Assembly (NCBI RefSeq): GCF_003334305.1
Contig: NZ_QOWS01000004.1
Source: Escherichia coli
GTDB taxonomy: Bacteria; Pseudomonadota; Gammaproteobacteria; Enterobacterales; Enterobacteriaceae
DNA length: 64,000 bases
Reading direction: 5' to 3' (one strand)
Within the stretch, counting starts at the first letter, position 1, and each line of letters starts with the position of its first letter. The translations under genes and the position numbers were made by a program. Of this stretch, positions 50,771-55,923 are shown piece by piece. The notes beneath the pieces are model-generated. The model did no database searches. It worked only from the letters and a program-made list of their open reading frames with translations, and had not been told where the DNA came from.

Positions 50771-51790
50771 TTACCTGAAAGCAACAGTAGCCATAGCTAA
50801 CGTCGTGTCGAGCATTCGGTTAGCAAAGCCCCATTCGTTATCGCACCAGACCAACGTTTTGATCAGGTGTGCGCCACTGACCCGGGTTTGGGTGCCATCG
50901 ACAATGGCACTGTGCGGATCGTGGTTAAAATCTACAGAGACCAACGGCAATTCCGTATAGTCAACTATACCATGAAATGCACCTTGTGCTGCTTTTTGCA
51001 GCAACAGGTTGACTTCATTGGCTTTTACAGGTTTCTTCACCGTCACGCTTAAATCGATTGCCGTCACATTTATGGTTGGCACACGTACCGCAATCGCTTC
51101 AAAGCGATCGTTAAATTGCGGAAAAAATCGTGTGATACCGGCGGCCAGTTTAGTATCGACCGGAATGATCGACTGGCTGGCTGCCCGGGTGCGACGCAGG
51201 TCAGGATGGTATGCATCAATAACCTGTTGATCGTGCATGGCGGAGTGAATTGTGGTCACAGTGCCGGACTCAATACCGTACGCATCATCTAACAATTTGA
51301 TGACGGGAATTATGCAATTCGTGGTACAGGAAGCGTTAGAAACGATGCGGTGTTCCGCACGAAGTTGATCCTGATTGACGCCGTAAACAACGGTCGCGTC
51401 GAGATCGTTACTGCCAGGATGTGAAAAGAGCACTTTTTTGGCCCCGGCGGCAATATGCGCTTCGCCATGCTCGCGGGAGCCATATACGCCGGTGCAGTCG
51501 AGGACTACATCAACGCCAAGTTCACGCCAGGGGAGCGATTGCAGTGAACGTTCATGCAATACGCGGATGGCGTCATCACCAACAAAAAGTTGATCGCGTT
51601 CCTGTCGTACTTCCCATGCAAAACGGCCATGGCTGGTGTCATATTTCAACAAATGCGCCATGCCCGCAGCATCCGCCAGTTCGTTGATTGCCACCACGGT
51701 AATTTCCGCCCGGCGTCCGGATTCATACAAAGCACGAACCACATTACGCCCGATGCGACCGAAGCCATTTATCGCTACGCGTACGGTCAT
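50771..51790 (-). CDS. epd: D-erythrose-4-phosphate dehydrogenase
   Basis: ORF 50771..51874; start [15 protein letters not shown] at 51790 gives 339 aa; GAPDH-family NAD motif NGFGRIGR. Confidence 0.92.
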
Positions 51791-51911
51791 AGATCTCCTG
51801 CAAGGTTTTCCCTGAGCAAATTTGCCAGACAGAGTAATCCAGCAAATCGTCCGGGGAAACCTTACCTGTCGCAAACTGCGACTGATTGGTTAATTGTCGA
51901 ACATTTAATCG

Positions 51912-51927
51912 ACTGAAACGCTTCAGC
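51912..51927. promoter_or_regulatory. Candidate Cra (FruR) operator upstream of epd
   Basis: ACTGAAACGCTTCAGC is a near-perfect palindrome of the Cra half-site TGAAAC, about 120 bp upstream of the epd start. Confidence 0.4.
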
Positions 51928-52017
51928 TAGGATAAGCGAAACGTGGAATAAAAGGAATGATTGTCCAGTCAAAGAAAGCAATTATCTGACTTACGTCACG
52001 TTTTCAGCCCCGCCCCT

Positions 52018-52033
52018 GTGGAATTTATTCCAC
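52018..52033. promoter_or_regulatory. Perfect 16-bp palindrome in the epd / ECF-operon divergent control region
   Basis: GTGGAAT-TT-ATTCCAC; an additional GTGGAATAAAAGGAATG half-site-like repeat lies at 51943-51959. Confidence 0.35.
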
Positions 52034-52161
52034 TTTGCAGAATCACGAATAAGCGTAGCAAAATCTTTTCGTTGTGCCGTCACAAACCCTGACTTATATC
52101 AGAATATGACTGATGCAGCGTCGATATTATCCGCAATACGTCCGAGTTTCGGAGTACTCCA

Positions 52162-52593
52162 ATGATGACATTGCCCTACCCATATTCTTCCTCCGCACGC
52201 TTTTACGCACTGCGCCTCCTCCCCGGGCAGGAAGTTTTTTCCCAGCTACACGCTTTTGCACAGCAGCATCAACTTCATGCCGCCTGGATTGCAGGCTGTA
52301 CCGGTAGCCTGACTGACGTCGCCTTGCGCTATGCCGGGCAAGAAGGCACCACGCTCCTGAACGGTACATTCGAAGTGATCTCACTAAACGGCACGCTGGA
52401 ACAGAGTGGTGAGCATCTTCATCTCTGCGTTTCCGATCCACACGGCACGATGCTTGGCGGTCATATGATGCCCGGCTGTACCGTGCGGACCACGCTTGAA
52501 CTGGTGATCGGTAGCCTTGAGGAACTGGCGTTTAGCCGCCAACCTTGCGCGCTTTCTGGTTACGACGAGTTGCATATTTCCCCCGTTAAATAA
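52162..52593 (+). CDS. Small cytoplasmic protein, tentatively PPC/DUF296-like
   Basis: 143-aa ORF with GGAG RBS 8 nt upstream; no TM segments; pattern LRLxPGxEV...GSL..V.LRYAG....LNGTFEVISLNGTL...HLHL.VSD..G...GGHMMPGCTV.TTLELVI resembles the DUF296 fold. No match to a K-12 protein that I know. Confidence 0.55.
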   Translation: MMTLPYPYSSSARFYALRLLPGQEVFSQLHAFAQQHQLHAAWIAGCTGSLTDVALRYAGQEGTTLLNGTFEVISLNGTLEQSGEHLHLCVSDPHGTMLGGHMMPGCTVRTTLELVIGSLEELAFSRQPCALSGYDELHISPVK

Positions 52594-52615
52594 CTACTTT
52601 CAAAGAGGTTTTCTT

Positions 52616-53194
52616 ATGGCGCGTAGCCACTTTTCCAGTCAGGCACTGGTGTTGATCGTTATATCTATCGCCATCAATATGATCGGCGGGCAACTGGCCA
52701 GCATGGTCAAATTACCTATATTTCTCGACTCCATCGGCACACTTATTAGCGCGGTACTGCTTGGTCCGGTGATCGGAATGCTGACCGGCTTACTGACCAA
52801 TTTACTCTGGGGATTGCTGACCAACCCGATCGCCGCCGCATTTGCACCCGTCGCGATGGTCATCGGCCTGGTCGCCGGTTGCCTGGCGCGAGCGGGTTGG
52901 TTTCGCACCCTGCCAAAAGTCGTTGTCAGCGGCGTGATTATTACGCTTGCGGTAACGGTCGTCGCTGTACCGCTGCGTACTGCGCTGTTCGGCGGTGTCA
53001 CCGGTAGCGGAGCCGATTTGTTCGTTGCCTGGATGCACTCGATGGGGCAAAACCTGGTGGAGTCGGTGGCGATTACGGTGATAGGCGCGAACCTGGTCGA
53101 TAAAATTCTTACAGCGGTGATTGTCTGGCTTTTACTGCGCCAGCTGCCGATTCGCACCACGCGCCATTTTCCGGCAATGGCTGCCGTGCGCTAA
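52616..53194 (+). CDS. ECF transporter substrate-capture (S) component, substrate unknown
   Basis: ORF 52517..53194; start MARSHF at 52616 behind an AAAGAGG RBS gives 192 aa with about six hydrophobic helices; its stop overlaps the next start (TAAATG). Confidence 0.6.
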   Translation: MARSHFSSQALVLIVISIAINMIGGQLASMVKLPIFLDSIGTLISAVLLGPVIGMLTGLLTNLLWGLLTNPIAAAFAPVAMVIGLVAGCLARAGWFRTLPKVVVSGVIITLAVTVVAVPLRTALFGGVTGSGADLFVAWMHSMGQNLVESVAITVIGANLVDKILTAVIVWLLLRQLPIRTTRHFPAMAAVR

Positions 53195-53902
53195 ATGCAT
53201 CCATTTACCTCATTAACACTGTGGGCATTGGCGGCCTGCACCACGCTTATCCTGCCCGCGCAGACCATTTTGCCAATCTATAGCGCGGCGACCTTTTTCT
53301 GCCTTATTGCGCTAAAGGCCACGCGGCGGCGGGCAAAATATGTCGTCTGGCTGATGTTCTCGCTGGGAGCCGGGCTGTGGCTGGTACACGGTGGCTGGCT
53401 ACCAGAATGGCTAAGCGGCACGCCACGCTCGCCAGAACGGTGGTCGCATGCTATTACGCTCTGGTTGCGGATTCTGGCGATTGTTTCAACCTCACAGTTG
53501 TGGATGCAGTACGTCCCCGTGCAATGTTTTATTCGCGCTCTGTTTGCTTCTCGCCTGCCGCCAGGCGTCGCTTATCTGTTTGCCGGGCCGTTATTGGTCG
53601 TTGAGCAGTTAAAACGGCAATTAGCGATTATTCATGAAGCGCAGCGTGCCCGCGGCGTGCCGCTGGATGAGGGCTGGTATCAGCGTTTACGTGCGATGCC
53701 CGCGTTAATTATTCCGCTAACACACAATGCGCTTAACGATCTGGCTGTCCGTGGTGCGGCGCTGGATATGCGGGCATTTCGGATCCACAACCGACGAACA
53801 ACGTTGTGGGCACCAGCCGATAGCACCCTACAACGCGTAGCGCGTTACACCATGATCTTGCTGATGCTGACAGAATTCGGAGCGTGGATATGGTTACGTT
53901 AG
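53195..53902 (+). CDS. ECF transporter transmembrane (T) component, EcfT/CbiQ family
   Basis: 235-aa polytopic protein with two Ala-Arg-Gly coupling-helix motifs (EAQRARGVP, LAVRGAAL). Confidence 0.65.
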   Translation: MHPFTSLTLWALAACTTLILPAQTILPIYSAATFFCLIALKATRRRAKYVVWLMFSLGAGLWLVHGGWLPEWLSGTPRSPERWSHAITLWLRILAIVSTSQLWMQYVPVQCFIRALFASRLPPGVAYLFAGPLLVVEQLKRQLAIIHEAQRARGVPLDEGWYQRLRAMPALIIPLTHNALNDLAVRGAALDMRAFRIHNRRTTLWAPADSTLQRVARYTMILLMLTEFGAWIWLR

Positions 53903-54567
53903 AACAGTTCCGTTATTGCCCGACACACTCAACGCATCCTCCGTTCTGTTATGACTTTCACTATGTCAAACCGGGGATGGTCGCCATCTTTGGTGACAAC
54001 GGCAGTGGCAAAAGTACGCTGGCACAGCTGATGGCGGGCTGGTATCCGGACTTTCTGCCAGGAGAGATAACAGGCACGGGGACGCTCCTCGGTACGCCCA
54101 TTGGGCATCTCCCGCTTAATGAACAATCCGCCACCATCCAGCTCGTCCAGCAATCGCCCTATTTGCAGCTCTCCGGCTGTACCTTTAGCGTGGAAGAAGA
54201 AGTTGCCTTTGGGCCAGAAAATCTGTGTCTTGCTGAAGCAGAGATTTCGGCGCGGATTGATGCCGCCCTGACTCTGACCGAGTGCCAGCCGTTGCGCCAT
54301 CGTCACCCGGCAACACTCTCCGGTGGAGAGACACAGCGCGTGGTCATCGCCTGCGCCATCGCGATGCAGCCAAAGCTCTTAATTCTTGATGAAGCCTTTA
54401 GCCGCCTGACTCCGCAGGCCAGCGAAATGCTGTTGCAGCGCTTACAACACTGGGCGTTTGAACGTGGTTCGCTGATTATTCTTTTTGAACGTCATCGCAC
54501 ACCTTTCCTGAACTACTGCCAGCAAGCGTGGCAATTGAAAAACGGAGCGCTCCAGCCACTATGTTAA
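53884..54567 (+). CDS. ECF transporter ATPase (A) component
   Basis: 227-aa ORF with Walker A GDNGSGKST, signature LSGGETQR and Walker B LLILDEA; its start overlaps the T-component 3' end. Confidence 0.75.
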   Translation: MDMVTLEQFRYCPTHSTHPPFCYDFHYVKPGMVAIFGDNGSGKSTLAQLMAGWYPDFLPGEITGTGTLLGTPIGHLPLNEQSATIQLVQQSPYLQLSGCTFSVEEEVAFGPENLCLAEAEISARIDAALTLTECQPLRHRHPATLSGGETQRVVIACAIAMQPKLLILDEAFSRLTPQASEMLLQRLQHWAFERGSLIILFERHRTPFLNYCQQAWQLKNGALQPLC

Positions 54568-55238
54568 CGTTAAATAAGATATCTTATCGCTGGCCTGGCG
54601 CGGCAACGGATTGTCTTTGCGACATTTCTCTGCAACTCAAACAAGGTGAATGGTTGGCGCTGACCGGCGACAATGGCGCGGGAAAATCGACGCTGTTACG
54701 AGTAATGGCAGGTCTTCTTACGCCCACAGCCGGTACGGTTATGCTGCAACAACAGGCGATGAAAAACCTGAAAAACCGCCAGCGCGCGGCAAAGGTTGGC
54801 GTACTGTTTCAGGAAGCGGAAAACCAACTTTTTCACAGCACCGTCGCTGACGAGATCGCATTTGGTTTGAAACTGCAAAAATGCCCGGCGGATGAAATCA
54901 CTCAACGTACCCATGCTGCCCTGCAATGTTGTCAGTTAGCAGACACTGCCAACGCGCACCCGTTGGATCTGCATAGTGCGCAGCGACGGATGGTCGCCGT
55001 CGCCTGCCTGGAAGCACTCTCTCCGCCACTATTGCTGCTGGACGAGCCGAGTCGGGATTTTGACGAAAATTGGTTGAGCGTGTTTGAAAGCTGGCTGGAG
55101 AAGTGCCGCCAGCGAGGCACGAGCGTCGTAGCAATCAGTCATGACGCCGCATTTACCCGGCGTCATTTCTCTCGTGTGGTGCGACTGGAAGATGGTCTAA
55201 TCAGGAACGTTAATCCACCAGACGATATTCACCCGTAG
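54561..55238 (+). CDS. ECF transporter ATPase (A') component with degenerate signature motif
   Basis: ORF 54528..55238; likely start MLTLNKISYR at 54561 (ATGTTAA overlap with the upstream stop). Walker A GDNGAGKST, Walker B LLLLDEP, H-loop SHD; the signature position reads LHSAQRR instead of LSGGQ. Confidence 0.7.
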   Translation: MLTLNKISYRWPGAATDCLCDISLQLKQGEWLALTGDNGAGKSTLLRVMAGLLTPTAGTVMLQQQAMKNLKNRQRAAKVGVLFQEAENQLFHSTVADEIAFGLKLQKCPADEITQRTHAALQCCQLADTANAHPLDLHSAQRRMVAVACLEALSPPLLLLDEPSRDFDENWLSVFESWLEKCRQRGTSVVAISHDAAFTRRHFSRVVRLEDGLIRNVNPPDDIHP

Positions 55239-55923
55239 CGGTCATCATTAAGGTCAAATTTGCAGGCAGACTCTCTTCCAGCACCCGGCGAACATTCGGC
55301 CCGTCGGTACGGTCATAAAAAGCTTCTGCGTCTGCCAGCGATACCCCTCCCGCCAGCTTGCGCCCTACCAGTCGTTCCCGCAACGCAGTAGCTGGCGCGT
55401 TGATAAAGATCGAGAAATCACAAAATTGCGCAAGCTGGCACCACTTCTCGTCGTCCAGCAACAACCAGTTTCCTTCGACGATGACGAGTGGTGCGGTAAC
55501 GTGCAACGCATCTTCAACAGGATCATGCTTTTGTCGATCATACTGCGGCCACGTACAATCCCCTTCCACGACCTGGCACAGATTTTCCGCCAGTTTCGCA
55601 ACGTCAAATGTCTCTGGTGCGCCTTTGAAGGGGCGCAATTGATGCGCATCCAGCCAGCTATTGTAATGGTGAAAACCATCCATCGGGAGCGTCTGGATAG
55701 CGGGTAATTCAGGGTCTTGTTGCGCGAGATATTCCCAGAAGGTAGTTAAGGTAGATTTACCCGTCCCCGGCGGAGCGCAAAGAAAAACCACCGTACGTCG
55801 CTGCGGACTTACCGTCTGTAAGGCCGCCAGCATACGCAGCAACGGTTTATGCACGCGTTCTATCTCTTCATCATGGTACTGCACTTGCACGTTCAGCCCA
55901 TTCACCGTTAATTCAATTTTCAC
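55210..55923 (-). CDS. yggC: P-loop kinase-like protein YggC
   Basis: 237-aa ORF with Walker A APPGTGKST; its 3' end overlaps the convergent ECF A' gene by 29 bp. Confidence 0.88.
   Translation of the reverse strand: MKIELTVNGLNVQVQYHDEEIERVHKPLLRMLAALQTVSPQRRTVVFLCAPPGTGKSTLTTFWEYLAQQDPELPAIQTLPMDGFHHYNSWLDAHQLRPFKGAPETFDVAKLAENLCQVVEGDCTWPQYDRQKHDPVEDALHVTAPLVIVEGNWLLLDDEKWCQLAQFCDFSIFINAPATALRERLVGRKLAGGVSLADAEAFYDRTDGPNVRRVLEESLPANLTLMMTATGEYRLVD

Follow-up and report, generated by a model that had tools for sequence, protein, structure and literature searches.

The window considered here is a 64,000-nucleotide stretch of Escherichia coli chromosome (contig NZ_QOWS01000004.1 of assembly GCF_003334305.1), in which positions 52100–55300 are 100% identical to strain A7. 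In this region five co-directional, close-packed genes, flanked by epd and a yggC-type kinase gene, encode what is, by its sequence parts, an importer of the energy-coupling factor (ECF) type, also known as type III. The last two genes specify ATPases, here called A and A′, both of which RefSeq labels just “ABC transporter ATP-binding protein” (ABC, ATP-binding cassette). We consider it likely, judging from the motifs of the two proteins and those of their relatives, that A and A′ are the non-identical nucleotide-binding domains (NBDs) of a heterodimer dedicated to this importer, with one composite site that hydrolyses ATP and a second that binds ATP and is impaired in its hydrolysis. The observations that bear on this proposal are the motif content and alignment of the two proteins, the conservation of the motifs, purifying selection on the genes, gene fusions that speak to pairing, and a polarity of the asymmetry that runs through the wider family.

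Unequal motifs in the two ATPases

The signature of A′ reads LHSAQRR (Table 1), and two kinds of alignment agree in placing it in the columns of the canonical motif: ungapped phmmer alignments to ABCB4/ABCB1, ArtP and a related amino-acid transporter ATPase put LHSAQ in the LSGGQ columns, and a profile–profile comparison of the A and A′ families with hhalign pairs S144, G145, G146 and E147 of A with H138, S139, A140 and Q141 of A′. A preliminary description of this DNA, made from the letters and their open reading frames, had taken LHSAQRR for the signature equivalent, and that placement holds; nor does a canonical LSGGQ lie elsewhere in A′, a possibility it had raised, since a scan of the whole protein for another [LIVMF]SGG-like motif found none. 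The other motifs that it had listed as retained in A′ can be read directly in the sequence, namely Walker A (GDNGAGKST), Walker B (LLLLDE) and the H-loop (ISHD), the last of which aligns with the THE/SHD H-loops of solved ABC ATPases. Across 14 orthologues, Q84, D161–E162, D168 and H194–D195 of A′ are invariant, and Walker A residues G41–T44 fall short of full invariance solely through a deletion at that place in one sequence (P0014).

The same description had given A a canonical signature, and this stands: in LSGGETQR, the residues L143, S144, G145, G146, E147, Q149 and R150 are invariant in orthologue alignments. The protein as a whole is not fully canonical, since the H-loop His and the D-loop Asp of A are both missing, points that the description had overlooked. 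The D-loop reads SRLT in place of SALD, and SRLS or SRIQ in distant relatives; within the Enterobacteriaceae the entire run D167, E168, A169, F170, S171, R172, L173 and T174 is invariant, and D167 and the catalytic Glu168 are invariant in orthologues. The H-loop region of A follows the pattern L-(F/L)-E-R, in which neither Glu200 nor Arg201 changes across 14 orthologues or in relatives down to 38% identity, and the following position holds His in E. coli and any of H, N, T, R, E and K across the orthologues. Alternative phmmer alignments offered Glu200, or His202 with an insertion, as the counterpart of the H-loop His. Both were dropped in favour of Arg201, because three lines agree on it: hhalign sets Arg201 of A on His194 of A′, residue 202 is not conserved, and in the AlphaFold2 (AF2) model of A a strand spans residues 195–200, so that Arg201 is the first residue beyond it, the usual place of the switch His. 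The models of both proteins have a predicted local distance difference test (pLDDT) score of 89. The invariance of Walker A in A (Table 1) suggests that nucleotide binding is kept, and since Walker A, the Q-loop Gln and Walker B are all invariant among orthologues of A, ATP binding appears to be under selection.

A further feature of A is a conserved insertion after the Walker A helix (residues 48–62, 54031–54075), containing GWYPDFLPG, in which W51, Y52, P53, D54, L56, P57 and G58 are invariant; it is absent from A′ and common to the N-terminal halves of fused ECF-type ATPases.

In an ABC dimer the two NBDs pack head to tail, such that the Walker/H-loop face of one subunit meets the signature of its partner. 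Given this geometry, all of the non-consensus residues of the pair fall in one composite site, that between the Walker/H-loop face of A and the signature of A′, and the other site, built from the Walker A, Q-loop, Walker B DE and SHD of A′ together with the LSGGE of A, is consensus throughout. The sequences support the earlier prediction that one site is consensus and one degenerate, and they do so more strongly than was then apparent, as the degenerate site lacks the switch His on its A side as well. In MalK, HisP, HlyB and CFTR, substitutions of the H-loop His and of the signature Ser/Gly cut hydrolysis strongly.

Conservation, pairing and polarity among relatives

The degenerate signature of A′ is a stable feature of the family. 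In the form L-H-[STA]-A-Q-R-R it is invariant across Escherichia, Salmonella, Citrobacter, Klebsiella, Leclercia and Atlantibacter, at 70–96% identity, with L137, H138, A140, Q141, R142 and R143 unchanged across these enterobacterial genera. Among representatives at 45–58% identity the motif is either LHAGQRR, as in P0243 and P0244 (55–58% identity) and in the fused protein P0242 (42% overall and 55% over the A′ half), or LNSAERR, as in P0255 and P0269. The ratio of nonsynonymous to synonymous substitution rates (dN/dS), with a second E. coli lineage and Leclercia as the comparisons, is 0.07–0.30 for the ATPase genes and 0.06–0.14 for the other three genes of the operon, indicating purifying selection.

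The operon is not present in every strain, and one might suppose that it is a degenerating accessory element in E. coli, with A′ on its way to becoming a pseudogene. The operon and its upstream region (52064–55238, 3175 bp) are indeed a presence/absence polymorphism in the species: the segment is found at ≥80% coverage in 3320 of 5426 complete E. coli genomes (61%) and is absent from 2095 of the 5426 (39%), as in strain BS-04, where some 51 bp of unrelated sequence replace it. The right-hand breakpoint is exactly the last base of the A′ stop codon. Against decay stand the dN/dS values, which lie between 0.06 and 0.30 over all five genes, the invariance of the odd motifs across genera and their presence in relatives at 45–58% identity, and the fact that the genes are intact and annotated in all 14 of the sampled genomes that carry the full-length segment. 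The epd locus of Leclercia carries the same five-gene cluster, which also occurs in unrelated contexts elsewhere, and because of this shared position the distribution suggests a cluster that was ancestral at epd and has been lost in some E. coli lineages. We regard decay as very improbable, reject it on the grounds of dN/dS and motif conservation, and take the idea to be largely refuted.

The polymorphism touches the neighbouring gene as well. A′ and the yggC-type nucleoside/nucleotide kinase gene on the opposite (−) strand are convergent and share 29 nt (55210–55238). The final codons of the kinase gene thus belong to the polymorphic segment, and the C-terminus of the kinase must differ in strains that lack the operon; BS-04 has a kinase gene annotated as frameshifted.

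That A and A′ work together, rather than each forming a homodimer or serving another transporter, is suggested by good indirect evidence for a 1:1 pairing on the transmembrane coupling subunit (T). The genes overlap, are always adjacent and keep a constant order, and single-chain versions occur naturally in that same order: P0242 (503 aa) is a direct fused orthologue of A–A′ with FERH and LHAGQ, and P0255 (683 aa) is a T–A–A′ fusion that keeps the LER and LNSAE motifs. Homodimeric ATPases do exist in CbiMNQO and BioMNY-type ECF systems, and a CbiO dimer (5X40) is among the fold matches, which is nothing specific to this pair. In an A′ homodimer both signatures would be degenerate, an A homodimer would be left without any switch His, and we give unpaired ATPases hardly any chance of being correct.

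The fused relatives also allow the direction of the asymmetry to be read. From the 150 best 50%-identity representatives matching A′, which are mostly two-domain ECF-type ATPases, every domain was aligned to the A′ profile and the motif columns were read, yielding 141 proteins with two scorable domains; family identity was confirmed for six sampled survey proteins, whose best scores were to ECF_ATPase_1/2 and cbiO. In 96 of the 141 the signature is canonical in the N-terminal half and degenerate in the C-terminal half, and the converse arrangement occurs in 2; both halves are canonical in 31 and both degenerate in 12. The other motifs are lost on one side only: the H-loop His is missing from the N-half of 37 proteins and from the C-half of none, and the Walker B Glu from the N-half of 14 and the C-half of none (each of 141). 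On sequence grounds, then, the E. coli pair represents, in split and minimal form, an asymmetry that is widespread in its relatives and has a strict polarity there.

The same survey bears on a rather different account of the odd site, namely that both sites are catalytically competent and that the chemistry of one has been rewired, with His138 of A′ and Arg201 of A taking over the γ-phosphate contacts of the signature Ser and the switch His. What makes this worth considering is that A keeps an invariant Walker A, Q-loop and Walker B catalytic Glu, and that the substitutes are themselves invariant or conservatively polar and potentially phosphate-contacting (H/N at signature position 2; R201). 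The relatives argue the other way, in that 14 of the 141 also lose the Walker B Glu in this very site, and their C-half signatures are very diverse (LSRGQ, LGPSR and IPPAR, for example), which fits a relaxed catalytic constraint better than a specific new chemistry. In other ABC ATPases, H-loop His-to-Arg and signature Gly changes are strongly inactivating, which also counts against rewiring. We therefore consider two competent sites unlikely, and return to the reading in which one site is impaired.

Truncated proteins and a proposed division of labour

Both A and A′ are 225 aa long and end some 50 residues before the solved EcfA/CbiO proteins do. Residues 3–220 of A′ align to residues 6–223 of a 278-aa EcfA1 chain (9kym_A) and residues 3–225 to residues 7–232 of a 282-aa chain (8bmr_A), matches to the NCBIfam ECF_ATPase_1/2 profiles stop at positions 223 of 269 and 231 of 279, and EcfA chains in the PDB are 278–300 aa. 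Foldseek gives TM-scores of 0.83–0.88 when normalised to the query length and 0.67–0.72 when normalised to the ECF ATPases of about 280 aa, with 0.65–0.73 as the wider range over target length. The models of A and A′ are complete NBD folds with no C-terminal domain, and their nearest solved folds are ECF/CbiO ATPases. Since alignments and profile matches stop at the core NBD and the TM-scores fall when taken over the longer targets, the C-terminal extension is absent, and the preliminary description, which had called the proteins short (about 225 aa) and lacking the extension usual for EcfA, was correct on both counts.

Taken together, the motifs and the truncation are compatible with the following scheme. 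A and A′ would be the two nucleotide-binding subunits of a dedicated type III importer whose other parts are a substrate-binding subunit (S), T and a conserved PCC-domain partner, and they would sit on T as a head-to-tail heterodimer with two unequal ATP sites. The first site, composed of the A′ Walker A, Q-loop, Walker B and H-loop and the A LSGGE, would presumably be the hydrolytic site that delivers the power stroke. The second, composed of the A Walker A and B and the A′ signature, keeps all the parts needed to bind Mg-ATP (an invariant Walker A Lys, Walker B Asp-Glu and Q-loop Gln); its switch His is gone, with Arg201 in its place, and the signature Ser-Gly-Gly has become His-Ser/Thr/Ala-Ala/Gly. 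Such a site most likely binds ATP and hydrolyses it slowly or not at all, and may thus hold the dimer together as a latch, structural or regulatory in kind, as is the case for heterodimeric ABC exporters; in the TM287/288 type the degenerate site retains its nucleotide and maintains contact between the NBDs (reviewed in PMC3971661). With such a latch the enterobacterial proteins may have been able to do without the C-terminal dimerisation domain of the EcfA type.

Several observations weigh against this scheme or parts of it. A keeps the catalytic Walker B Glu168, a residue missing from many classic degenerate sites, and the site may therefore retain some catalysis or an altered form of it; A′ still has the signature Gln and the downstream RR; the polarity described above was read from relatives of A′, which are not an unbiased census of ECF ATPases; and a relative with the same degenerate motifs, at locus L005, has retained a C-terminal extension of about 55 aa on each of its two ATPases. 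This last pair (L005:4172–5819, 48–53% identity) comprises ATPases of 281 and 273 aa with EcfA-type extensions and the FER and LHAGQ motifs. Loss of the extension is accordingly not a necessary consequence of a degenerate site; the pair implies instead that degeneracy is older than truncation, and that the truncation in enterobacteria is a secondary loss within the family.

A broader version of the scheme can also be envisioned, in which a consensus/degenerate arrangement, always with catalytic residues lost from the first ATPase and the signature from the second, characterises in general those dedicated ECF modules whose two ATPases differ or are fused. Such modules would spend one ATP per cycle and keep the second site permanently ATP-loaded as a dimer latch, in the enterobacterial proteins replacing the missing C-terminal domain, possibly with His138 of A′ and Arg201 of A as a rewired phosphate-sensing pair. 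We put this forward as a tentative extrapolation from the motif survey, and one that is more apt to fail than to hold.

The operon and its relation to known systems

The coordinates of the operon genes and of the ATPase motifs are collected in Table 1. The gene order is PCC protein, S component, EcfT, A, A′. The EcfT gene runs 13 nt into A, and A runs 7 nt into A′, which starts at an ATG. For A the preliminary description had proposed an earlier start at GTG 53884, which we do not uphold; the ATG at 53890 has a GGAG 7 nt upstream, orthologues all begin with MVTLE, and RefSeq agrees. None of the five genes encodes a solute-binding protein. A scan of 51700–55400 for Rfam riboswitches at permissive E-values returned zero matches, and promoter and terminator scans gave counts no higher than chance.

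Table 1. Genes of the operon and motifs of its two ATPases, by position in the window
Feature	Position	Strand	Remarks
PCC/PPC (DUF296, PF03479) domain protein, operon gene 1, 143 aa	52162..52593	+	RefSeq name, PDB match
ECF S component (substrate-binding membrane subunit), 192 aa	52616..53194	+	Pfam ECF_trnsprt PF12822
EcfT-type transmembrane coupling subunit, 235 aa	53195..53902	+	Pfam CbiQ PF02361, RefSeq
ATPase A, 225 aa	53890..54567	+	NCBIfam ECF_ATPase_1 and cbiO best, fold matches
A Walker A GDNGSGKST, residues 35–43	53992..54018	+	N37–T43 invariant, 14 orthologues
A signature LSGGETQR, residues 143–150	54316..54339	+	consensus type, part of consensus site
A Walker B LLILDE, then atypical D-loop SRLT	54376..54411	+	LLILDE = 54376–54393; canonical D-loop SALD
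A H-loop region LFERH	54481..54495	+	Glu200-Arg201 in place of usual (S/T)-His
ATPase A′, 225 aa	54561..55238	+	NCBIfam ECF_ATPase_2 and ECF_ATPase_1 best, fold matches
A′ Walker A GDNGAGKST	54666..54692	+	G41–T44 near-invariant
A′ degenerate signature LHSAQRR, residues 137–143	54969..54989	+	aligned to LSGGQKQ/LSGGQRQ
A′ Walker B LLLLDE and D-loop SRDFD	55029..55064	+	LLLLDE = 55029–55046; L158–P163, R165–D168 invariant
A′ canonical H-loop ISHD	55134..55145	+	H194, D195 invariant

Two Ala-Arg-Gly-type coupling motifs define the T components of ECF transporters. The T subunit here has two xRG motifs, ARG at residues 152–154 (nt 53648–53656) and VRG at residues 185–187 (nt 53747–53755); its match to CbiQ (PF02361, residues 10–197) is weak (E = 2.3e-4), and its RefSeq name is energy-coupling factor T component. 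The S component matches PF12822 over residues 10–173 (E = 1.2e-8) and the NCBIfam model NF045596, a CD3073-family putative S component, with E = 1e-39 and 135.9 bits, under the cutoff of 180; these were its only matches in Pfam and NCBIfam, where no CbiM/NikM match was found. A sequence search of the PDB returned no meaningful matches for either S or T. It is these parts (a PF12822 S, a CbiQ-type T with two xRG motifs and CbiO-like ATPases) that make the system, by sequence, an ECF-type importer. RefSeq calls the first gene a “PPC domain-containing DNA-binding protein”, and the protein matches solved structures deposited as “putative DNA-binding protein” (2HX0/2NMU, E = 4e-75); the gene remains first in the cluster in unrelated genomic contexts (L004, L005 and L006). 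Candidate roles for the protein are regulation, substrate processing and service as a transporter accessory.

What has been written about the operon concerns Salmonella. A literature search by locus tag returned only a passing mention of the Salmonella operon (PMC11481890) and a 2018 thesis on STM3071, the PCC gene, which that thesis examined as a possible regulator. The operon is reported to be anaerobically activated (PMC11481890), and Co2+ import is suggested for it by a thesis, as relayed in PMC11481890. The cobalt assignment looks driven by annotation and should be treated as putative only, as the type of the S subunit does not support it.

Among the closest characterised systems are the group II EcfA–EcfA′–EcfT modules (L. 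brevis 4HUQ, L. delbrueckii 5JSZ/8BMS and T. maritima EcfAA′ 4HLU/4ZIR), which have the same composition of S, T and two CbiO-like ATPases, are, with TM-scores of 0.8–0.89 over the query, among the nearest solved folds to A and A′, share ECF_ATPase_1/2 as best families and have a T with two xRG motifs. There are also differences. Against the group II equivalogs TIGR04520 and TIGR04521, A scores 120.5 bits (cutoff 315) and A′ 150.3 bits (cutoff 330), both far below the threshold; the E. coli ATPases are without the C-terminal helical dimerisation domain of about 50 residues; the module is dedicated to a single S component encoded in its own operon, in the style of group I; and the EcfA/EcfA′ pairs studied so far have two consensus sites, compared with one degenerate site here. 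CbiMNQO and NikMNQO resemble the operon in that its ATPases and T match cbiO/CbiQ models and that CbiO structures are top fold matches. The E. coli S component, in contrast, is of the PF12822 vitamin type and not CbiM/CbiN, and two different ATPases take the place of a CbiO homodimer; because the S component is not CbiM-type, the system is not a CbiMNQO transporter.

The fused ECF-type ATPases of dedicated ECF systems (P0242–P0390) provide a parallel for the asymmetry itself. A resembles their N-half, with an insertion after the Walker A helix and a Glu before the H-loop, A′ resembles their C-half, and the polarity is shared, with a degenerate C-half signature in 108 of the 141 proteins and an N-half without the H-loop His in 37. 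The E. coli pair differs in being two polypeptides, in being shorter, in having no inter-domain linker or C-terminal extension, and in the His at signature position 2.

Outside the ECF family, heterodimeric ABC exporters (TM287/288, TAP1/2, LmrCD, BmrCD, CFTR and MRP1) likewise deviate in the H-loop and the partner signature of one composite site and keep the other intact. In those exporters ATP is bound at the degenerate site and poorly hydrolysed (PMC3971661), and by analogy the same might be expected of A/A′. The E. coli module differs from them as a type III importer with S and T subunits, a toppling mechanism and a retained Walker B Glu, and the tie is one of mechanistic analogy, homology being limited to the shared NBD fold. 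Among importers, degenerate ATP sites have been described before in the fused ATPases RbsA and NupO of Bacillus subtilis; these belong to binding-protein-dependent importers, and their degenerate site is also missing the Walker A Lys and probably cannot bind ATP (PMC11466899); A, by contrast, keeps an invariant Walker A. A full-text literature search found degenerate sites described for exporters and for RbsA/NupO and none for ECF ATPases, and no description of the family-wide polarity of ECF-type ATPases was found in the literature searched.

We regard this as a modest finding: consensus/degenerate asymmetry was known from exporters and the genes were already annotated, and what is new is an ECF module with a conservedly degenerate site and truncated ATPases. 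ECF transporters have been studied almost entirely through group II modules, with their two consensus sites and C-terminal dimerisation domain, and the number of ATP molecules used per transport cycle and the split of work between the two sites are questions still asked of them. The operon offers a natural, compact and genetically tractable module, in E. coli and in Salmonella, in which the one-site question could be asked without engineered mutants, and the survey of fused relatives suggests that the asymmetry is common rather than an oddity. Were the arrangement to prove a general hallmark of dedicated ECF modules, these would be importers that run on one ATP per cycle.

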